Shown in pieces: positions 1 through 7,977 of a stretch of 64,000 bases of DNA (position 1 is its first letter; each line of letters starts with the position of its first letter). A program made the position numbers and the translations under genes. The DNA is taken from the NCBI GenBank assembly GCA_037442505.1, contig JBBIPZ010000011.1:1500-65499 (forward strand). Reading direction: 5' to 3'. This DNA is from Deltaproteobacteria bacterium (GTDB taxonomy: Bacteria > CALINM01). The notes beneath the pieces are model-generated. The model searched no databases. It was not told the origin of the DNA and saw nothing but the letters and a program-made list of their open reading frames with translations.

Positions 1-1641
1 CACAATGTCCGACATGTCTGCAAGTTCTGTGAGGATTGTATCAATAACCACGCTGTAGATCTTTCTGTAGCCTTCTATCTGTCTTTTTACATCGGATGTG
101 CTGAATGGCCTGTTTGTACCATAAGACATCATGAATTCAGGCTCGTATTGCAATCCGTATGCCTTTGGATCAGCAAGTGTAAGGGCAACCTGCTGTGCTA
201 CATTGTGGGTTCCATGTGGGAAATAGACACTTTCCTGAAGATCTACCCTCTTTGGAGGATATTCGCACTTTGATGGCTCCATGTATTTTGGATTTTTATA
301 AACATCATGCAGATGCATGCCACCCACTGCGTCAAAGGCACCTACAAGCATGAGTACGATCTGTCTTGCCCTGTTATTCTGCACACCATATTCATGAGCA
401 CTCATACCACGGAAGGTATGTATCGCTACAGGACGGTATCTCAGAACCTTACCCTCTTTTACAACAGTTGCGCCAATCTGGGCGTGTTCACCAAACTCCT
501 TTGCTATCCTTTTAATCGTCCCAGCAGGCACACCCGTAACTTCCTCTGCATACTGAGGAGTTATATCTTTTATTGATTCTTTAAACACCTCAAAGGCTGT
601 CTTACAGGGCTTGCCATTAACAGTATAACTGCCTGAAATGGCTGGTTCGACATCTCCTTCGTATGGTCTGGCTGAATTTGATTTTTTATCCCAGATTAAG
701 GGCTTGCCGTCCTTTCTTACAAACTTTCCATCCTCGCCAACAAGCATGGGTGCATTGGTATAGGTAATGAGGAATTTTTCATCTACCTGATTATTCTTTA
801 TCAGCTCATTTGCCATGGCAAGGAGGAATACCGCATCTGTGGCAGGCCTTATTGGAATCCATTCGTTTGCCTTTGCTGCTGTATTTGAAAGCCTCGGCTC
901 AACCACAACATATTTCATTCCCCTTTCAATATTCTCAATAATCTTTCTGTCAAGCCACCTTGCCCATTGCTCTGCCTCCATCGGATTTGCACCCATGTTT
1001 ATGAAGTAATTACAATTGTCCACATCAGGCAGGAATGCATGATTACCCCAGGTTATCTCATCAGAGACATGTCTTGCAGCCTCACAAACGGTTGTCCTGT
1101 GGACTACATTGGGGGTGCCAAAAGCCTTACAAAATGCCTTTGGGAAATGGTCGCGCATTAGATATTTGCCATGACCATGCTGCCATACAAACTTGCTCGG
1201 ATTTTCAGCCTTGATCTTTTTAAGCCTCTTAACAATCTCATCAAAGGCCTCTTCGTAACTGATCTCGACCCATTTTGGGTCCTCTCCGGGACCTTTTTTA
1301 GCATTCGTTCTCTTAAGGGGCCTCTTTACCCTGTAAGGATTATAGGTGTCAAAGAGACCTGAAACACCTTTCGGACAGAGATGACCTGCATTCTGAGGAT
1401 TTTCAGGATTGCCGTAAATAGCCCTTATTACACCGTTAACCCTCCTCACCCTTATACCGCAGAAGTTTACGCACATCGTATCTGTGGACGGAATCAGGAC
1501 ATCCTCCTTCGGTGCAAAGGGAATCTTGCTCATGGATTCCTTTGCCATTACATCCGAGAGATTAAAAAACGTTTCTCCCATTGCTGCAAGCGCAGCAACT
1601 GCAGCTGAATTTTTCAAAAACTGTCTCCGGCTTATTGCCAT
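1..1641 (-). CDS. Tat-exported molybdopterin (Mo/W-bisPGD, DMSO reductase family) oxidoreductase catalytic subunit, Cys-ligated Psr/Arr/Sre/Soe-like lineage; 3' end truncated by window edge (547 codons visible)
   Basis: Not in the ORF track. Manually translated stop-free frame from ATG at 1641 (SD GGAGG at 1649-1653) to position 1. MAISRRQFLK twin-arginine signal; PSTDTMCVNFCG...x27...HLCPKG Fe-S motif; RTNAKKGPGEDPKWVEISYEEA; GTPNVVHRTTVC (Mo-ligand position); EPRLSNTAAKANEWIPIRPATD; EEVTGVPAGTIKRIAKEF; IDTILTELADMSDIV. The short plus-strand ORFs listed over 307-1608 are antisense shadows. Confidence 0.95.
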   Translation of the reverse strand, partial: MAISRRQFLKNSAAVAALAAMGETFFNLSDVMAKESMSKIPFAPKEDVLIPSTDTMCVNFCGIRVRRVNGVIRAIYGNPENPQNAGHLCPKGVSGLFDTYNPYRVKRPLKRTNAKKGPGEDPKWVEISYEEAFDEIVKRLKKIKAENPSKFVWQHGHGKYLMRDHFPKAFCKAFGTPNVVHRTTVCEAARHVSDEITWGNHAFLPDVDNCNYFINMGANPMEAEQWARWLDRKIIENIERGMKYVVVEPRLSNTAAKANEWIPIRPATDAVFLLAMANELIKNNQVDEKFLITYTNAPMLVGEDGKFVRKDGKPLIWDKKSNSARPYEGDVEPAISGSYTVNGKPCKTAFEVFKESIKDITPQYAEEVTGVPAGTIKRIAKEFGEHAQIGATVVKEGKVLRYRPVAIHTFRGMSAHEYGVQNNRARQIVLMLVGAFDAVGGMHLHDVYKNPKYMEPSKCEYPPKRVDLQESVYFPHGTHNVAQQVALTLADPKAYGLQYEPEFMMSYGTNRPFSTSDVKRQIEGYRKIYSVVIDTILTELADMSDIV

Positions 1642-1786
1642 CTTAACACCTCCTTAAACTTAAAAATATCTTTCTACAACTGGCAGCTTAAGTTCAACAT
1701 AATACATAAGATTTTGACATAAAAAAATAAATCTCCTCTCACTTCCTATGCGCATACATTTACCCAATTAGAATTATTGTTTTACA

Positions 1787-1801
1787 ACAACTTTCATGCC
1801 A
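1787..1801 (-). promoter_or_regulatory. Putative sigma54 (-24/-12) promoter for the molybdoenzyme gene
   Basis: Minus strand TGGCATGAAAGTTGT: GG-N10-GT, one mismatch (-12 C to T) from TGGCAC-N5-TTGC; ends about 145 nt upstream of the ATG. Confidence 0.55.
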
Positions 1802-1843
1802 ACATATAAATCTATGATTTTAAAGCCTTCTACAACATGGCTA

Positions 1844-1861
1844 TGTTACAAAAAAGAAACA
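1844..1861. promoter_or_regulatory. Imperfect palindrome TGTTAC-N6-GAAACA (candidate activator site, proximal)
   Basis: One mismatch from the perfect copy at 1934-1951, with the same 6-nt spacer. Confidence 0.45.
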
Positions 1862-1933
1862 GTAAGTTGCAAGATAAAAATACAAAACTATGAAAATTCA
1901 AAAAAATTTTTATACATTCAGGATAGAGATATT

Positions 1934-1951
1934 TGTTACATTTAAGTAACA
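1934..1951. promoter_or_regulatory. Perfect palindrome TGTTAC-N6-GTAACA (candidate upstream activator site)
   Basis: TGTTACATTTAAGTAACA read directly, 90 bp from the second copy, upstream of the putative sigma54 promoter. Confidence 0.55.
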
Positions 1952-2577
1952 TAAAGGGTTATTATCCTCTTATTTTTTTGCAACAGCTGAAAAATATTTC
2001 AGAATTTTCTCAAGACTTTCCTTCAACTTTATTAGTAATTAACGGCGTCTTATCTGAATGCCTTAAGGATTGAAAGTTTTTATATGTAAAAATCCATAAA
2101 AATACTGTTTTAAAACACAATACACATCTTAATGTCAATCTTTGCGCTATCTTTCGCTGCTAAAAATGGAAGACTGATATTTTCTCCATCCTTTTTATCA
2201 TCTAATTTTACACCTACATCTTTTTTTATAATGTTGTGATGGTGCTTGTGCTGTACTATTTACTTATAAAAAAGTTGTGGCTTCTACCTTGTAAGATTCA
2301 CACTCTAATATTAAATGCTTGATTTTTGACCACTGCTTCTACTGCTTAACATCTGTTAAGTAACAACTCATTTGTTCCACCTATTGCATTGCCCTTGCGG
2401 TATTTGTGATATACGAATATCGGCAACTATTTATTTTAATCATGAAAGAATGGGATGGTACCTTAACCCATTTCTATGTTTTTATTTTATTATTTAAGCA
2501 GTTTGATTATATTTCACAAATCATCAAACAAGAAGAGATTTTTTTGAAAGTCCATCTCTAATATTTGCCAGTAAAAG

Positions 2578-3912
2578 CTATTCAATTCCATACTCTTTAA
2601 TTTTGTAATGAATAGAACGAGGGCTAATTTCAAGAAGCTTTGCAGCTTTTAGTCTATTACCATTTGTAAGAGTAAGAGCCTTTTTTATGTAATCTCGTTC
2701 TACATCTTCAATAACCTTTTTTAGAGAGAGGATTGAAGAATCAACCTTTTCTGAATTGATATTTTCTCTTATAAACATATAATCTGGCAAATCATCAATA
2801 TCAATTAGATTATCATTGGAGAATATCAAGATGCGGTCAATTACATTTCTAAGCTCTCTAAAATTACCAAACCATGGATAATTTAGTAACACAGATAATG
2901 CGTCTTTTGATATCTCTTTCTTTACCTTATTTAATCTCAGGTTGACATAAGCAACTATGTCTTCCTTCCTTTCTCTCAAAGGTGGTATATGAATTGGAAT
3001 GACGTTAAGTCTGTAATAAAGATCATTTCTAAACCTGCCTTCATCTACAAGTGCTTTTAAATCTTTATTTGTAGCGGATATTATTCTAACATCTACCTTG
3101 ATTGTTTTAACATCACCAACAGGTCTAATCTCTCCATCTTCAAGAAATCTTAAAAGTTTACTCTGTAACGACTCACTCATCTCAGATATCTCATCCAGAA
3201 AACACGTACCACCATCTGCATATTCGAAAAGTCCCCTTTTTGGTTTAGTTGCATCGGTGAAAGCACCCCTCGCATACCCAAAAACTTCGCTTTCTAATAG
3301 ATTTTCTGGAATCGCCGCACAGTTAATTGCTACAAAAGGTTTAGATGCACGATGACTTTTCTGATGCAGAAGATGTGCAATAACTTCTTTTCCCACACCA
3401 CTCTCTCCTGTTATAAGCACAGGTTGCCTGTATGGAGCCACCTTTTCGACAGCCGCTATAACATTCTTAATTGCTGAACTTTCGAAAATAGTATTATCCA
3501 TTAACATTTGATTTGACTGCCATTTAAGCAATGTATTTTCTTTAATAAGACGTTGTCTTTCTTCAGCCTTTTTGATGGCAATTATAACTTCGTCTGTTTT
3601 GAAAGGTTTAGATATATAGTCGTAAGCACCTCTACGTATGACTTCTACGGCAGTTTCAACAGAACCAAAAGACGTCATCATGATGATTGTCAAGGAAAGT
3701 TCAAGTTTTTTAACCTCGTCTAAAAATACGAAACCATCCATTTCCGGCATTTTAATATCACAAAGCAAAATATCAAAAAGCTCATTTTTAACCTTCTCCA
3801 GACCAATAGCACCATTTTCAGCCATATCAACATCATAACCAGCTTTTTCAAGAACCTTTTTTAACATCTGTCTGATGCTTAATTCATCATCTATAACCAA
3901 TATTTTAGCCAA
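2578..3912 (-). CDS. Sigma54-dependent response regulator (REC-AAA+-HTH; AtoC/ZraR/PilR-like)
   Basis: N-terminal receiver (VIDDE, LLCDIKMP, DYISKPF), Walker A GESGVGKE, GAFTDA, LDEI, RFRNDLYYRLNV, C-terminal GNRLKAAKLLEISPRSIHYKIK. Confidence 0.93.
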   Translation of the reverse strand: MAKILVIDDELSIRQMLKKVLEKAGYDVDMAENGAIGLEKVKNELFDILLCDIKMPEMDGFVFLDEVKKLELSLTIIMMTSFGSVETAVEVIRRGAYDYISKPFKTDEVIIAIKKAEERQRLIKENTLLKWQSNQMLMDNTIFESSAIKNVIAAVEKVAPYRQPVLITGESGVGKEVIAHLLHQKSHRASKPFVAINCAAIPENLLESEVFGYARGAFTDATKPKRGLFEYADGGTCFLDEISEMSESLQSKLLRFLEDGEIRPVGDVKTIKVDVRIISATNKDLKALVDEGRFRNDLYYRLNVIPIHIPPLRERKEDIVAYVNLRLNKVKKEISKDALSVLLNYPWFGNFRELRNVIDRILIFSNDNLIDIDDLPDYMFIRENINSEKVDSSILSLKKVIEDVERDYIKKALTLTNGNRLKAAKLLEISPRSIHYKIKEYGIE

Positions 3913-5326
3913 TTTGCTCCTCCAGACCTTTTAAGAAAATTTTAAATATTGCCCCTTTATCGCTATTCTCAAATTGTATCTTCCCGCCATGCCTTTCAAC
4001 AAGTGTAAGGACTACACTTAAACCAAGTCCTGTGCCTTTGCCAGGTGGTTTGGTTGTAAAAAAAGGTTCAAATATCTTGTCTTTGATCTCATCCGGAACT
4101 CCTCCACCTTCATCTGAAATCGTAATTATAAGCATATCGCCTTCTAATTTCGAAGAAATCGTGATACTTCCGCCTTCAGGAGTAACATCAATTGCGTTAA
4201 TAAGTAAATTGAGAAACACCTGCTTAAGTGCCTCGCCGTTAAAATTAACTGGCATACTTTCTTTAAAATCATTAATAAGTTTAATCTTTTTAAAGTCCTT
4301 CTGCGGTGTCAAAAGTCTAATTGTTTCATCAAGTATATCGCGTGGGTTGCAGATTTCCAAAATATCGTCTTTATGGTTTCTTGCAAAGTTAAGCAGGTCT
4401 CTAATAATACGATTTATTCTTTCAGTCTCATCAAGTATGAGCTTCAATATATTTTTGTCTTCTTCATCTTTAGCATTGTCAATCATAAAAGAAAGATACC
4501 CAATTATACTTGTTAGTGGATTGCCAATTTCATGCGCTAATCCTGCCGCCAAACGACCAACTGTAGCCATTTTTTCAGAAAAAACAATTTCTTCCTGCGC
4601 AGTTTTAAGAGCTTCGTTAGTTTTTGAAAGTTTTTCTATCGTATTTTTCAGATCATTTCTATAATTTTCTAAATAGTCGCTCATTTGATTAAAGTGAGAA
4701 TACAATACATCCCATTCCTCTATATTAATGTATGAAAGTTTTTCACCAAAATTTCCACTTCCTACTTTTAAATGAGCATTTTTCAATAATTCAAATGGTG
4801 TGAAAAGCCTTTTTTTGTAGATAAAATAGGCAAAGGCTGTCAATGTTAATAGGCAAACTGCCCCAAAAGGCAAAAAAATCAAAATATCTTTTTTAATCAT
4901 CTTTTTTTCTACATCAAAATCTCTTTTTATAACTAAAAACAGAGGTTTTCCTTTTATATATACAGTTTGATAAACTGTAATCGAGGGGAAAAACAAATTA
5001 TTACCGACTATAGTGTCAGCCACTCCCAGCTTAATTTTTTCTTTATCAATTAAATTAACGCCAGATATAAGCTCTTTCGTAACAGGATCATATAATCCAT
5101 ACGAAACTCCAACAGGCAGAAATAATAGAATTTGCTCAATTTTATCAGGATTGTATTTTTCTGCATCGTAAAAGATTTTTTGCAAATATACGGTTTCTAA
5201 TTCAACCTGCCTCTTTATTGATATTTTAAATGTAGCAAAAGATGTGATAAATATGGCAAGAAACGATAACAAAAAAACACCAATTATTAGTTCTGTTTTT
5301 ATATTGCCAGTATAATTTTTTGCCAT
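3905..5326 (-). CDS. Membrane sensor histidine kinase (2 TM, HAMP, HisKA, HATPase), cognate of the downstream regulator
   Basis: Two hydrophobic segments; H-box LAHEIGNPL; N-box LNLLINAIDV; DEGGGV; FFTTKPPGKGTGLGL; overlaps the start of the regulator. Confidence 0.93.
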   Translation of the reverse strand: MAKNYTGNIKTELIIGVFLLSFLAIFITSFATFKISIKRQVELETVYLQKIFYDAEKYNPDKIEQILLFLPVGVSYGLYDPVTKELISGVNLIDKEKIKLGVADTIVGNNLFFPSITVYQTVYIKGKPLFLVIKRDFDVEKKMIKKDILIFLPFGAVCLLTLTAFAYFIYKKRLFTPFELLKNAHLKVGSGNFGEKLSYINIEEWDVLYSHFNQMSDYLENYRNDLKNTIEKLSKTNEALKTAQEEIVFSEKMATVGRLAAGLAHEIGNPLTSIIGYLSFMIDNAKDEEDKNILKLILDETERINRIIRDLLNFARNHKDDILEICNPRDILDETIRLLTPQKDFKKIKLINDFKESMPVNFNGEALKQVFLNLLINAIDVTPEGGSITISSKLEGDMLIITISDEGGGVPDEIKDKIFEPFFTTKPPGKGTGLGLSVVLTLVERHGGKIQFENSDKGAIFKIFLKGLEEQIG

Positions 5327-5384
5327 AAAATAATCCTAAAAATCTTAGGTTTATCAAATATTTTATACTAAAAAAGCAGAAAAA

Positions 5385-5393
5385 TGATATAAT
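5385..5393 (+). promoter_or_regulatory. Extended -10 promoter (TGnTATAAT) for clpS-clpA-aat
   Basis: TGATATAAT at 5385-5393, followed 6 nt later by the clpS ATG at 5400; no SD. Confidence 0.6.
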
Positions 5394-5399
5394 ATAATT

Positions 5400-5705
5400 A
5401 TGGATTTTTATGAATTAGTAGAAAAAAGCCAAAAAGAATCTGTTAAAACAAAAAAGCCTGATCTTTATAACGTTTTTCTTCTAAATGATGATTATACTAC
5501 TATGGATTTTGTAGTGGACATACTTATGTCTATTTTTCATAAAAATCAGATGGAAGCCACCAAAATAATGCTTCATGTTCATAATAACGGAAAGGGTTTA
5601 GCAGGAACATATATTAAAGATATTGCTGAAAGTAAGGTTAAAACTGTCCACAAACTCGCAAGAAAAAATGGTTTTCCATTAAGATGCAGTATCGAAAAAG
5701 AGTAA
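5400..5705 (+). CDS. clpS: ATP-dependent Clp protease adaptor ClpS
   Basis: YNVFLLNDDYTTMDFVV, HNNGKGLAG, FPLRCSIE; directly upstream of clpA. Confidence 0.96.
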   Translation: MDFYELVEKSQKESVKTKKPDLYNVFLLNDDYTTMDFVVDILMSIFHKNQMEATKIMLHVHNNGKGLAGTYIKDIAESKVKTVHKLARKNGFPLRCSIEKE

Positions 5706-5712
5706 CAAAATT

Positions 5713-7977
5713 ATGATAAATAAAGATCTCGAAATTATTATTGACGCAACTTTAAGAGAAGCAAAATTAGAGGGGCATGAGTATGCAACTGTTGAGCACA
5801 TACTTTATGCTGTTCTCCACGATGATTATGGTTCAGAGATTATCTTTCAATGTAAAGGTAACGTTGAACAAATGAAATCTGATTTAAAAGAGTTCTTTGC
5901 GGAATATATACCTCATGTTAAAGAAATAAGTGATTCAATGCCAATACTCTCATCTGGCTTTCAACGTGTTATTCAAACAGCAATAAGAAACGTACAGGCA
6001 GCTGGAAAAAAAGAAGTGGATGCTGGCGATTTGTTAAATGCAATATATTCTGAAACCGATTCTTATGCCTTAAATATTTTAAAAGCTCAAGGTATAACAA
6101 AGCTGGACATATTAAGATACATTTCTCACGGTATATCTAAAATACGTAATGATTATACTGATTATACATCTCACCAACATACTGAACATCAAAACAGACC
6201 CAAAAAAGAATTTACAAAAGATCCGCTTTCACAATTTAGTGTAGAATTAGTTGAATTAGCCTCAAAAGGCAAAATTTCTCCTGTAATTGGAAGAGAGTTA
6301 GAAATTGAGACTGCAATACACGTATTGTCAAGACGTAGAAAGAATAACGTTGTTTTTGTTGGAGAGCCAGGTGTTGGCAAAACCGCAATTGTAGAAGGGC
6401 TAGCTTTAAAAATATCAAAGGGAGACGTACCTGAAATTTTAAAAAATACAAAAATTTATTCGTTAGATTTAGGAGCGATGCTTGCTGGCACTCAATTTAG
6501 AGGTGATTTTGAAGCTCGTCTAAAAGGCACAGTTCAGGCATTATCCAGAATCCCTAATGCAATAGTATTTATCGATGAGATACACACGCTTGTTGGTGCT
6601 GGAGCATCGTCAGGCGGCTCTATGGATGCATCAAACATTTTAAAACCTTATCTAAATAGCGGTCAACTACATTGTATAGGCGCAACCACTTACGAAGAAT
6701 ATAAAAAGTTCTTTGATAAGGATCGTGCACTTTCAAGACGTTTCCAGAAGATTGACGTTTTAGAGCCTACGGTTGAAGAGACTTATAAAATCTTGTCTGG
6801 TCTGAAAAAATATTATGAAGAGTTTCACGGTGTCACATATACTGATAAAGCTTTACGTTTAGCAGTGGAACTATCTGCAAAATATATTAATGATAGACAT
6901 TTACCAGACAAGGCAATAGATATCATTGACGAAGTTGGTGCAAAGGTTAAGCTTTCCAACAGAGTGAATAAGGTTGTAAAGTCTAAAGATATTGAAAATA
7001 TAGTATCGAAGATTGCAAGAATACCAGTAAAAACTGTCTCTACAACCGAAACCAACAAACTGGTAAATTTAGAAGAAGAGCTTAAAAACGTTATATTTGG
7101 ACAGGATGAAGCTGTTAGGTCTGTTGTGCAAGCGATCAAACGCTCACGCGCAGGATTGGGCAACCAGAGCAGTCCAATAGGCTCATTTCTTTTTGTCGGT
7201 CCAACGGGCGTGGGTAAAACTGAACTTGCAAAACAGCTGGCAAACCTTTTAGGGATACATTTTTTGCGTTTTGATATGAGTGAATATATGGAAAAACATA
7301 CTGTTTCACGATTAATTGGTGCACCACCCGGCTATATTGGTTTTGATCAGGGTGGTTTACTTACTGACGAAATAAGAAAGTTTCCTCACACAGTTTTATT
7401 ATTAGACGAGATTGAGAAGGCACATCCAGACGTGTTCAATATACTGCTTCAGGTGATGGATTATGCCACATTAACAGATAATAACGGTAAAAAGGCTGAT
7501 TTCAGGAATGTTATTTTGATTATGACATCAAATGCCGGTGCAAAAGAAATGGAGAATACTACTATCGGTTTTGGCAACAGAATAGAAGAGCATAAGAAAG
7601 AAGGTCTTACTAATATTCAAAAACTTTTTTCACCAGAATTTAGAAACCGCTTAGATGCAATCATCACATTTAATCACTTGAACGAAAAAATATTGTTAGA
7701 GATTGTTGATAAATTTATCAACGAAATCAGGTTACAACTTGCTGATAAAAAGATTGATATTTATATCTCAGACGACGCTAAAAAATATCTGGCTTTAAAA
7801 GGCTATGATAAACGTTACGGTGCAAGACCGCTCAGACGTCTTATTGAAGCCGAAATAACCAACAAACTAACAGACGAAATACTTTTTGGAACACTCAAAA
7901 AAGGCGGTTCAGTAACAATCAATCTTGTAGAAAATAAGTTAAAGCTCCAATTCAATGGTAGTATTTTTAAAAACTAA
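5713..7977 (+). CDS. clpA: ATP-dependent Clp protease ATP-binding subunit ClpA
   Basis: N-domain HEYATVEHIL; two AAA+ modules (GEPGVGKT, GPTGVGKT); FDMSEYMEKHTVSRLIGAPPGY; IGF loop; 754 aa with no ClpB-type middle domain. Confidence 0.96.
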   Translation: MINKDLEIIIDATLREAKLEGHEYATVEHILYAVLHDDYGSEIIFQCKGNVEQMKSDLKEFFAEYIPHVKEISDSMPILSSGFQRVIQTAIRNVQAAGKKEVDAGDLLNAIYSETDSYALNILKAQGITKLDILRYISHGISKIRNDYTDYTSHQHTEHQNRPKKEFTKDPLSQFSVELVELASKGKISPVIGRELEIETAIHVLSRRRKNNVVFVGEPGVGKTAIVEGLALKISKGDVPEILKNTKIYSLDLGAMLAGTQFRGDFEARLKGTVQALSRIPNAIVFIDEIHTLVGAGASSGGSMDASNILKPYLNSGQLHCIGATTYEEYKKFFDKDRALSRRFQKIDVLEPTVEETYKILSGLKKYYEEFHGVTYTDKALRLAVELSAKYINDRHLPDKAIDIIDEVGAKVKLSNRVNKVVKSKDIENIVSKIARIPVKTVSTTETNKLVNLEEELKNVIFGQDEAVRSVVQAIKRSRAGLGNQSSPIGSFLFVGPTGVGKTELAKQLANLLGIHFLRFDMSEYMEKHTVSRLIGAPPGYIGFDQGGLLTDEIRKFPHTVLLLDEIEKAHPDVFNILLQVMDYATLTDNNGKKADFRNVILIMTSNAGAKEMENTTIGFGNRIEEHKKEGLTNIQKLFSPEFRNRLDAIITFNHLNEKILLEIVDKFINEIRLQLADKKIDIYISDDAKKYLALKGYDKRYGARPLRRLIEAEITNKLTDEILFGTLKKGGSVTINLVENKLKLQFNGSIFKN

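Follow-up and report, generated by a model that had tools for sequence, protein, structure and literature searches.

A diheme-cytochrome-linked, Arr-like molybdoenzyme family without a name, and its tentative assignment to arsenate respiration in a deltaproteobacterial genome

Which substrate does the exported molybdoenzyme encoded at the left edge of a 64,000-nt stretch of deltaproteobacterial DNA (the window; contig JBBIPZ010000011.1 of assembly GCA_037442505.1) act upon, and to which family does it belong? A first-pass annotation of the window had proposed a possible respiratory role on sulfur, selenium, arsenic or antimony oxyanions for this enzyme, and had noted that its mix of motifs fits no family that could be named. 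We found that the enzyme, subunit A of a four-gene operon, belongs to a well-conserved, unnamed, Arr-like family with a diheme cytochrome partner. The genomic context points to the suggested respiratory oxyanion role, and specifically to arsenic. Our tentative reading, which we place somewhat below an even chance, is that the operon encodes a respiratory arsenate reductase analogous to ArrAB in this genome. Its gene content, family placement, motifs, neighborhood statistics and promoter elements are observed directly; we infer its substrate, direction, electron path and regulator. Hereafter G000 denotes the window's genome, L001 the window locus extended to the contig end, and other L and G numbers the other loci and genomes compared.

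The window starts at base 1500 of contig C11 and cuts the gene of A, which reaches G000:C11:573; with the further 1,499 contig bases to the left (L001 570..3140), A is complete at 856 aa. Pfam identified the TAT signal, Molybdop_Fe4S4, Molybdopterin and Molydop_binding domains. The twin-arginine translocation (Tat) signal that had been claimed for A was confirmed, with the motif SRRQFLK and a TIGR01409 score above the cutoff of 16.7 bits for both the fragment in the window (22.0) and the full protein (21.2); Pfam TAT_signal scored 22.9 and 22.2 bits, respectively (cutoff 22.7). The FS0 motif of A reads D54-x2-C57-x3-C61-x27-C89. The AlphaFold model had a mean pLDDT of 83.7 and a pTM of 0.86. 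When A was scored against NCBIfam, PhsA (NF012032) gave 282.7 bits (cutoff 694), ArrA (NF041714) 217.3 (1600), DmsA/YnfE 196 (778), NapA 112 (904) and TtrA (NF011567) 100.6 (1750). All curated cutoffs were missed, and an ordinary PsrA, PhsA, ArrA or TtrA identity was rejected. Judged by its sequence, A is a Tat-exported catalytic subunit with a Mo/W-bis(pyranopterin guanine dinucleotide) (bisPGD) cofactor that no curated family claims.

Among solved structures, ArrA (6cz7) was nearest by sequence (2.1e-53), followed by PsrA (1.1e-45). The same order was obtained by fold, using Foldseek with the AlphaFold model (ArrA 1.2e-42, TM 0.71/0.74; PsrA 1.7e-39, TM 0.64/0.74). That PhsA is the best curated model (283 bits) and PsrA the second-best structure would suit a sulfur-compound reductase of the Psr/Phs/Ttr or MOLY kind, acting on polysulfide, thiosulfate, tetrathionate or elemental sulfur, with the arsenic genes as island bystanders. 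We consider this reading unlikely, and the PhsA score is far under its cutoff (283 vs 694).

A word-indexed search with A gave 701 hits at E <= 1e-10, the best 120 of which were 53-96% identical over the full length. Sources among these 120 matches listed were Thermodesulfobacteriota-type metagenome-assembled genomes (MAGs), Beta- and Gammaproteobacteria, WOR-3 and archaea, and the proteins carried generic names only. A metagenome scan confirmed 550 of 655 stretches as relatives among the matches listed, and Sulfuricystis multivorans (WP_172599973.1) was the only cultured carrier seen among the matches listed. The family also occurs in Chromatiaceae. An exhaustive search of 50%-identity representatives returned three family representatives (51, 47 and 42% identity), all other full-length hits being at most 37% identical. 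The plasmid collection gave 41 matching records, all below 60% identity (23-33% among the matches listed), and no family member; Rfam gave no match on window positions 1..6000. In a FastTree phylogeny of 165 sequences, the family formed a 44-leaf clade with a support of 1.0 and a stem of 0.283. None of 53 representatives of neighboring clades, picked by tree position, reached a curated cutoff (best scores: Arr-like 667 of 1600, Phs-like 482 of 694), and with A itself also under every NCBIfam cutoff the earlier statement that no nameable family fits was borne out. The position of the family relative to the neighboring clades was not robust, with a support of 0.34 in one tree; the other tree placed the Cys-less sister group P0125 nearest (support 0.86). 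P0125 and its 7-member cluster have Gly at the position of the Mo-ligand Cys and Asp at FS0, and may be non-canonical or non-catalytic relatives.

The unnamed family is defined by monophyly, by near-invariant G158-K159-Y160, H181-R182, C186-E187 and R190-H191, and by a four-gene core, and we found each of these. Bona fide RGRY proteins (P0244 and the A proteins of L032 and G004) fell outside it, at 27% identity, as did P0261, a GRG-type neighbor. Locus L032 (G025:C5:753-6534), tried as a comparator of the MOLY type, was rejected as an ArrA-type A-B-TorD cluster with RGRY and PNNISHSSICAE..K; the gene immediately upstream of it encodes a 526-aa protein containing 12 CxxCH motifs, and the host genome of L032, G025, belongs to the class that holds the donor-like MAGs. 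A full-text literature search, with subscription-only papers outside its scope, found no description of an arsenic enzyme with a set of A, B and diheme cytochrome.

We then compared the active site with that of ArrA. Cys186, which had been placed at the Mo-ligand position, aligned with Cys193 of Shewanella ArrA in HMMER, MAFFT and BLASTP. The same three aligners put H155-G156-H157 of the motif WQHGHGKY over R163-G164-R165, as expected from its proposed place at the RGRY of Arr-type enzymes, and then showed an inserted G-K-Y-L. The segment PVAIHTFRGMSAHEYG...VGAFDAVGG was likewise found in A and is conserved within the family; the block P-Y-R-P-V-A...V-G-x-x-D-x-x-G-G is common to large unnamed groups, many without a Tat signal, and the Arr/Phs-like neighbors of the family carry a shorter form of it. 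Invariant or near-invariant in 123 members were H155 (112), G156 (107), H157 (121), G158, K159 (122), Y160, H181 (122), R182, T183, T184, C186, E187, R190, H191, W198 (121) and H201 (122). In the part of PMC13685797 available, the ArrA active-site set is given in ANA-3 numbering as R163-G-R-Y166, H189, C193, K198 and Y210; ArxA has GRGWG at 164-168 and shares residues 189, 193, 198 and 210. All three aligners mapped R182 of the family to H189, C186 to C193, H191 to K198 (R190 adjacent) and F203 to Y210, and position 203 varies within the family (F, H or I). Because of these differences the family fails the motif tests for both ArrA and ArxA, and only C193 (Cys186) of the ArrA set is kept. No GRGWG was found in the family or in any other protein of the comparison set. 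The pocket would nevertheless stay cationic, as expected of an oxyanion site, though from different residues. Other hallmarks of ArrA were present, namely Tat export, an FS0 motif and four Cys groups in subunit B, with variants at the FS0 Asp and at Arg93 of B.

The difference from ArrA at all diagnostic positions but the Cys would fit a substrate other than arsenate, such as antimonate, thioarsenate, selenite, tellurite or phosphite, of a kind suiting ArrX/AioX-like sensors and ACR3-type pumps. We regard such a substrate as very unlikely. A porin weakly like the selenite/tellurite porin ExtI (29.7 bits, cutoff 150) lies downstream of the operon in L007, and ACR3, which exports Sb(III) too, would also fit antimony. 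Set against this are the arsenic-specific neighbors of the family, an arsenite methyltransferase and aioBA, described below.

To define the operon and its surroundings we compiled a set of 84 loci, 71 of them metagenomic, 12 from species genomes and 1 fetched, from which L012 and L013 (31% identity, not family) were removed. Gene calling favored open reading frames (ORFs) conserved between loci, proteins were clustered, and dereplication at 90% identity of A left 57 lineages, or 56 after L057, whose A was not recognized, was dropped. The first-pass annotation had placed partner subunits to the left of the window. This held for B, which starts 10 nt after A and is cut by the contig end at residue 186 (L001 2..559 = G000:C11:2-559, minus strand); the predicted NrfD/PsrC-type C subunit was absent, and a diheme cytochrome c and a chaperone were found instead. 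Orthologues 84-90% identical on long contigs have the order A (856 aa), B (~219 aa), a signal-peptide-bearing cytochrome of 116 aa with two CxxCH motifs, and a NarJ/TorD-family chaperone of 231-245 aa. No NrfD/PsrC-type gene was seen among the core operon genes of the 56 lineages or close relatives. One end of contig C36 of G000 encodes the last 58 residues of the cytochrome and the entire chaperone, so the operon appears to be complete in this genome but divided by an assembly gap between C11 and C36. Of the 56 lineages, 51 had B, 41 had the chaperone and 34 had the cytochrome, the last being an undercount because the gene caller drops the cytochrome when its ORF extension overlaps B. "Cytochrome" ORFs of 250-350 aa suggested fusions of B and cytochrome; these were rejected as out-of-frame extensions over the real B gene, without Fe-S motifs.

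B has Pfam 4Fe-4S dicluster domains with four Cys groups, and its best curated model was ArrB at 132 bits (cutoff 450). Across 16 diverse members the only invariant residues of the cytochrome were the two CxxCH motifs, His53 and His56, which is what two bis-His hemes need and indicates a diheme cytochrome c. It gave no NCBIfam hit, matched no NapB model, and had only clusters labeled "hypothetical protein" as its nearest neighbors in the protein atlas. When B was docked in silico with the mature cytochrome, the prediction scored 0.67, a mark reached by 116 of 157 solved complexes and by 2 of 215 mismatched pairs, and the best of three controls scored 0.00. The runs agreed in at least 79% of contacts with a partner pLDDT of at least 73, and in the model the second heme motif and the conserved C-terminal tail of the cytochrome face the Cys-rich loops of B. 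The docking prediction thus supports binding of the cytochrome to B.

Two Fe-S ligand variants set the window's clade apart. Among the 22 members at >=65% identity, 18 have Asp as the first FS0 ligand, compared with 7 of the remaining 101. In B, CKGRKYC replaces C-x-G-C-x-Y-C at residue 93, so that the second Cys of the third C-x2-C-x2-C-x3-C group is missing; this position is Arg or Lys in 14 of 14 window-clade members and Cys in 52 of 60 others, and the loop lies within the predicted cytochrome interface. The third group of B may therefore hold a [3Fe-4S] cluster facing the cytochrome, and we hypothesize that both changes could tune the redox properties of the Fe-S chain.

Arsenic genes recur around the operon. 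At least one ars-type gene was present in 13 of the 56 lineages, at least two in 11 and ACR3 in 8; a PhnD-like sensor protein (X) with a kinase or sigma54 regulator adjoined the operon in 13, and X or ars genes were found in 24. When the count was limited to the 24 lineages whose flanks reach at least 4 kb upstream and at least 6 kb downstream, X was present in 12, ars genes in 8 and either in 18. The arsenic argument from these counts presupposes that ars and aio genes are rare in any given 16-kb stretch, a rarity that we estimate rather than test. Curated models applied to neighbor representatives identified ACR3 (420 bits, cutoff 283), arsenite methyltransferase (375, 263), ArsR/SmtB (55.9, 55) and a Tat-Rieske protein as AioB (192, 96), and a low-molecular-weight protein tyrosine phosphatase (LMW-PTP) ArsC (63, 174) and a small thioredoxin (56, 62) stayed below their cutoffs. 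In three lineages the gene aioB adjoined the operon, and in two of these aioA could be seen as well. For a sulfur-compound reductase one could cite TauE-type sulfite exporter genes near the operon in 4 loci, and porin O/P-like genes that stand beside the operon in L005 and L007 and, in the excerpt of PMC13490349 available, beside a Ttr homologue in Dissulfuribacter. No sulfur-transfer gene (rhodanese, TusA, DsrE) was found among the recurrent neighbor clusters scanned with Pfam, which speaks against it. Other recurrent neighbors in the 56 lineages were a polyferredoxin or ferredoxin-like gene after the chaperone (20), molybdenum cofactor (Moco) biosynthesis or FmdE genes (16), a NapC/NirT-type cytochrome (7) and an octaheme-cytochrome b561 fusion (6). 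The polyferredoxin was tried as a membrane anchor and rejected, with no convincing transmembrane segments and no match to a curated family.

The X proteins carried the arsenic signal further. The accessible text of PMC5908839 describes an AioX/ArxX/ArrX pocket of Tyr88, Cys106, Tyr131, Ser161, Ser163, His192 and Asp210, of which Cys106 and Asp210 are lacking in PhnD, and reports that among the oxyanions tried AioX, ArxX and ArrX bound only arsenite or arsenate. All 18 X proteins analyzed (17 beside family operons and one on contig C5 of G000) keep Tyr88, Cys106, Tyr131, Ser161 and His192 and have Ser/Thr at position 163 and Asp/Glu at position 210. Compared with solved structures, the X of L033 (the locus of a 71% orthologue) and the C5 X matched ArrX best (1.1e-49 and 4.1e-48), with lesser matches to AioX (~1e-30) and to the phosphite/phosphonate binders PtxB/PhnD (1e-10 to 1e-22); two X proteins of L044 matched AioX best (5e-62 and 9e-55), with ArrX at ~1e-33 to 1e-35. 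In a tree, the X proteins formed two clades that track the phylogeny of A, ArrX-like with A 56-90% identical to that of the window and AioX-like with A 51-56% identical. The arsenic-subfamily Cys106 pocket in 18 of 18 sensors, and the far better matches to ArrX or AioX than to other binders, count against a sulfur substrate. The X proteins are only ~40% identical to ArrX, which leaves room for another oxyanion; the binding of arsenite or arsenate only, as given in the same part of PMC5908839, argues the other way.

The sensors also bear on direction. An anaerobic arsenite oxidase with an Arx-like function, passing electrons to the diheme cytochrome and on to a photosystem or respiratory chain, would account for the half of the X proteins that are AioX-like, including one beside the L044 operon, and for carriers in Chromatiaceae, Sulfuricystis and other Proteobacteria, which are typical Arx hosts. 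A soluble cytochrome c partner would fit too, since Aio passes electrons to soluble cytochrome c. From what is available of PMC13685797 and PMC6549141, respectively, Arr and Arx are bidirectional in vitro, and the ferredoxin-like gene after the chaperone (20 of 56 lineages) recalls the arx-specific arxB2. On the other hand, the sensors of the window's clade are ArrX-like, the ArxA motif GRGWG is absent, and the quinol dehydrogenases of the NapC/CymA type in 7 lineages and the cytochrome b561 fusions in 6 are the typical electron input of periplasmic reductases. We judge arsenite oxidation distinctly improbable as the function in G000. The metagenomic locus L044 (1300..16103) has an AioX-like set of X, histidine kinase and response regulator (X-HK-RR) on each side of the operon, and aioB beside the second set.

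The features of the window are collected in Table 1, and those upstream of A tie the operon to a regulatory kit that also serves classical Arr.

Table 1. Features of the A gene, its upstream region and the adjoining regulatory genes in the window
Feature	Position	Strand	Remark
Subunit A, first 547 codons of the 856-aa protein	1..1641	minus	ORF from the ATG at 1641, open past the left edge
FS0 [4Fe-4S] motif, A residues 54-89, Asp as first ligand	1375..1482	minus	D-x2-C-x3-C-x27-C
Ribosome-binding site AAGGAGG	1649..1655	minus	8 nt upstream of the ATG of A
sigma54-type -24/-12 element TGGCATGAAAGTTGT	1787..1801	minus	160 nt upstream of the ATG of A
Upstream element ...ACTGTTTCTTTTTTGTAACATA...	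1842..1867	minus	matches ...ACTGTTTCTTTTAAGTAACATA... of the G004 arrA promoter
Palindrome GTTACTTAAATGTAAC	1935..1950	minus	309 nt upstream of the ATG of A
sigma54-dependent response regulator	2578..3912	minus	adjoins the operon
Histidine kinase paired with this regulator	3905..5326	minus	sensor domain matches no Pfam family

The GGAGG of the ribosome-binding site is invariant across 8 aligned orthologous upstream regions. The -24/-12 element stands at equal spacing upstream of the orthologues L003, L005, L007, L008 and L033, and also precedes the canonical arrA of G004. The sigma54 pattern by itself was found 48 times in the window against 37.8 expected, which is not above chance; the pattern alone was rejected as evidence and carries weight only through its conservation across loci. 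The palindrome is a probable enhancer-binding-protein site. The 2.1-Mb genome has only 4 exact copies of GTTAC-N6-GTAAC; apart from the one upstream of A, all lie within genes and lack a sigma54-like element within 400 nt. Palindromes were also found in L003 and L008, and L004 and L035 have neither palindrome nor -24/-12 element. The upstream element also resembles the GTAAC-N6-GTAAC sites of L003 and L008 and probably comprises activator half-sites. A literature search for a published AioR binding site gave nothing useful. The intergenic region (1642..2577, 936 bp) is long and AT-rich (GC 0.288), and its resemblance to the regions upstream of the orthologues is confined to the promoter-proximal 310 nt.

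The closest link to a classical enzyme came from G004, a genome of another genus of the window's own phylum, which has 6 species genomes. Here an X-HK-RR module 62/60/64% identical to that of L007 lies directly upstream of a canonical arrA-arrB-arrD operon, whose ArrA contains both FIRGRYSD and SPNSISHSAICAEAEKFG and shares 57% identity with the Arr-type protein of L032. Its promoter contains TGGCATAAAAGTTGA at -133 as well as ...ACTGTTTCTTTTAAGTAACATA.... Taken with the loci of the window's clade, this suggests that one kit of sensor, regulator and promoter serves either a classical Arr or a family operon. A canonical arr operon under the same regulator type and promoter argues against a sulfur substrate, and the tie of the regulator orthologue to canonical arrA argues against another oxyanion as well. 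The G004 locus (L110, G004:C21:12652-21652) has a two-domain X, the kinase and the sigma54 regulator before the arr operon, and a second X-HK-RR set after it.

Which regulator would act on the window operon is less direct. The adjoining regulator and kinase are doubtful as its controllers, because their recognition helix and sensor are unlike those beside the orthologues: the helix reads AAELLGISRKTLWEKL in the regulators beside orthologues, AAKLLEISPRSIHYKI in the window regulator and, as a near match, AAELLGISRKNLWEKL in the regulator on contig C5, and the window kinase is ~32% identical to the X-HK-RR kinases in the kinase core only. The X-HK-RR module on C5 (L015, G000:C5:13529-18684) has a host-like GC of 0.31-0.33, and sister genomes contain orthologues of it. 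The closest of these (62/70/70% identity), in G002 (L111, G002:C65:31067-40165), precedes a cytochrome c7, a B and a 1071-aa Mo enzyme, and the promoter of that operon contains GTTACCAAAAAGTAAC, so the C5-type regulator subfamily appears to use the GTTAC-N6-GTAAC palindrome. We infer that the C5 module controls the window operon in trans. On C5 of G000 the module and the c7 gene are kept, that B and A are gone, and a transglutaminase-like gene and a rhodanese gene follow. Divergent from the kinase gene of the window are plus-strand ORFs of 101 and 754 aa (5400..7977), which resemble ClpS and ClpA in sequence.

The metabolism of the host favors the reductive direction. G000 is 97.7% complete, and genome-wide the ArrA model gave no match over its cutoff. 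No heme-copper oxidase and no cytochrome bd over cutoff was found in G000, and no Mo catalytic subunit besides A and formate dehydrogenase (FDH), from which it follows that no nitrate reductase was found either. With no high-potential sink in view in this draft genome, arsenate reduction is much more plausible than arsenite oxidation in G000. The genome carries two [NiFe] hydrogenases and many multiheme cytochromes. The catalytic subunit in its FDH operon (G000:C15:20155-25506) is broken by one in-frame TGA (186 + 812 aa), as for selenocysteine. An ars island (G000:C24:472-4050) encodes an ArsP-type permease, a thioredoxin-like protein, an LMW-PTP-type ArsC and an ACR3 that is 69% identical to the ACR3 beside family operons.

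The operon looks horizontally acquired. The GC content is 0.437 for A and 0.461 for B, compared to 0.355 for the genome (standard deviation 0.025), and C11:1-2500 is the richest of 816 windows of the genome. The MAGs with 84-90% orthologues have 41-45% GC. Of the 6 genomes of the phylum, only G000 carries the family, which is absent from all 5 relatives; in the class to which one donor-like MAG belongs, 2 of 63 genomes carry it.

Several observations weigh against arsenate respiration or against parts of that account. The functional evidence is by association only, and the neighborhood counts are raw, without a matched control family such as another Mo enzyme. The ArrA-defining motif is replaced (HGHGKY for RGRY; R182, H191 and F203 at 189, 198 and 210), and the ArrA model gives 217 of 1600 bits. 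Neither ars genes nor an X protein adjoin the operon in G000, and of the 6 window-clade lineages only 3 have X and 1 has ars genes. Since no ArxX structure exists, ArrX-like cannot be separated here from ArxX-like. Part of the family may oxidize arsenite, because the distant branch has AioX-like sensors and, in 3 lineages, aioBA. The C5 module may serve another enzyme or oxyanion, since its G002 orthologue precedes a different Mo enzyme. The lineage is related by gene content to sulfur-metabolizing thermophiles, and A is the only non-FDH Mo enzyme of this anaerobe, which would also suit a sulfur-compound reductase. Lastly, the GC of A is 5 to 7 points above its flanks in L010 and L011 too, so the excess is partly intrinsic.

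If the operon does encode an arsenate reductase, B would be a four-cluster ferredoxin-type subunit exported together with A, the third gene product a small periplasmic diheme cytochrome c docking on B, and the fourth a TorD-type chaperone acting in maturation in the cytoplasm. H2 or formate would supply electrons to the periplasmic cytochrome pool, and these would reach the diheme cytochrome, from which they would pass through the Fe-S wire of B and FS0 to the Mo/W center of A. Arsenate would be reduced to arsenite at the cationic His/Lys/Arg pocket, and the arsenite would then be handled by the ACR3-type ars island. Transcription would start from the sigma54 promoter with its GTTAC-N6-GTAAC enhancer sites; the oxyanion sensor (periplasmic and ArrX-like), kinase and sigma54 activator that serve it would probably be those of the C5 module, acting in trans.

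A broader proposal, which we offer as speculation and think unlikely to hold, is that, next to Aio, Arr and Arx, the family makes up a fourth kind of molybdoenzyme in arsenic bioenergetics, connected through its diheme subunit to the cytochrome c pool and not through a membrane anchor to quinones. It would comprise arsenate-reducing lineages (ArrX-type sensor, Asp at FS0, B Cys missing) and arsenite-oxidizing lineages (AioX-type sensor, all-Cys), with direction set by Fe-S tuning and sensor, and in G000 it would have replaced the arrABD of the sister genus. Surveys of arsenic cycling count arrA, arxA and aioA; if the proposal is true, a widespread fourth enzyme means that part of arsenic mobilization is missed, the family being found in lineages of hot-spring, sediment and groundwater type that belong to several phyla and to the archaea. 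Two sensor types and two Fe-S variants that track two branches would also offer a natural experiment on catalytic direction in Arr/Arx-type enzymes, and the cultured carrier Sulfuricystis multivorans makes the arsenic reading directly testable.

Compared with known systems, the operon resembles ArrAB(C)(D) of Shewanella sp. ANA-3 and Chrysiogenes arsenatis in its Tat-exported Mo-bisPGD A subunit (856 vs ~850 aa) with FS0 and a Cys ligand, its four-cluster B, its TorD-type chaperone and, in relatives, an ArrX-like sensor with kinase and sigma54 activator. As with Shewanella Arr, there is no NrfD anchor and a reliance on c-type cytochromes. It differs from Arr in its low identity (~22-27%), its scores below the ArrA and ArrB cutoffs, its own diheme cytochrome gene in the operon and its separate, long-stemmed clade. 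With Arx (ArxB2-A-B-C-D, ArxXSR) it shares an Arr-like Mo enzyme, XSR-type regulation, a TorD-type chaperone, Gamma- and Betaproteobacteria as hosts and, in many family members, a ferredoxin-like extra gene; motif and gene content set it apart, as GRGWG and ArxC (NrfD) are lacking and a diheme cytochrome is present instead.

PsrABC/PhsABC (2vpw) share the superfamily branch, PhsA being the best NCBIfam hit and PsrA the second-closest structure; the family differs in scoring below 694 bits, in having no PsrC/PhsC membrane subunit and in its arsenic-type rather than sulfur-type neighborhood. A closer parallel on the sulfur side is the MOLY cluster of sulfur-disproportionating Desulfobacterota, which the available portions of PMC9676032, PMC12998232 and PMC13490349 describe as MolyA, MolyB and a TorD-like MolyC, exported and of unknown substrate. 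Like the family, MOLY as described there combines exported A and B subunits of a molybdoenzyme with a TorD-type chaperone, lacks an anchor and occurs in thermophilic vent or hot-spring anaerobes, and this likeness is a further point for a sulfur-compound reductase. Compared by description only, MOLY differs in being three contiguous genes, with no cytochrome gene between B and the chaperone, and the same portion of PMC9676032 gives only "much lower identity" MOLY homologues for Caldimicrobium, both of which count against that reading. In the class of 63 genomes that includes a Caldimicrobium-labeled MAG, the other A-type hits beside the 2 family carriers were at most 37% identical.

In architecture only, the operon is similar to NapAB with NapC or NapGH, where a soluble periplasmic Mo enzyme is fed via a small diheme cytochrome c, and NapC/NirT-type tetraheme quinol dehydrogenases are encoded alongside in 7 lineages. 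NapA lacks a four-cluster B, the A subunits are distant, and the cytochrome of the family matches no NapB model. SoeA, described as cytoplasmic in the part of PMC6620896 available, was compared by description only, and the Tat signal of A argues against a SoeA identity.

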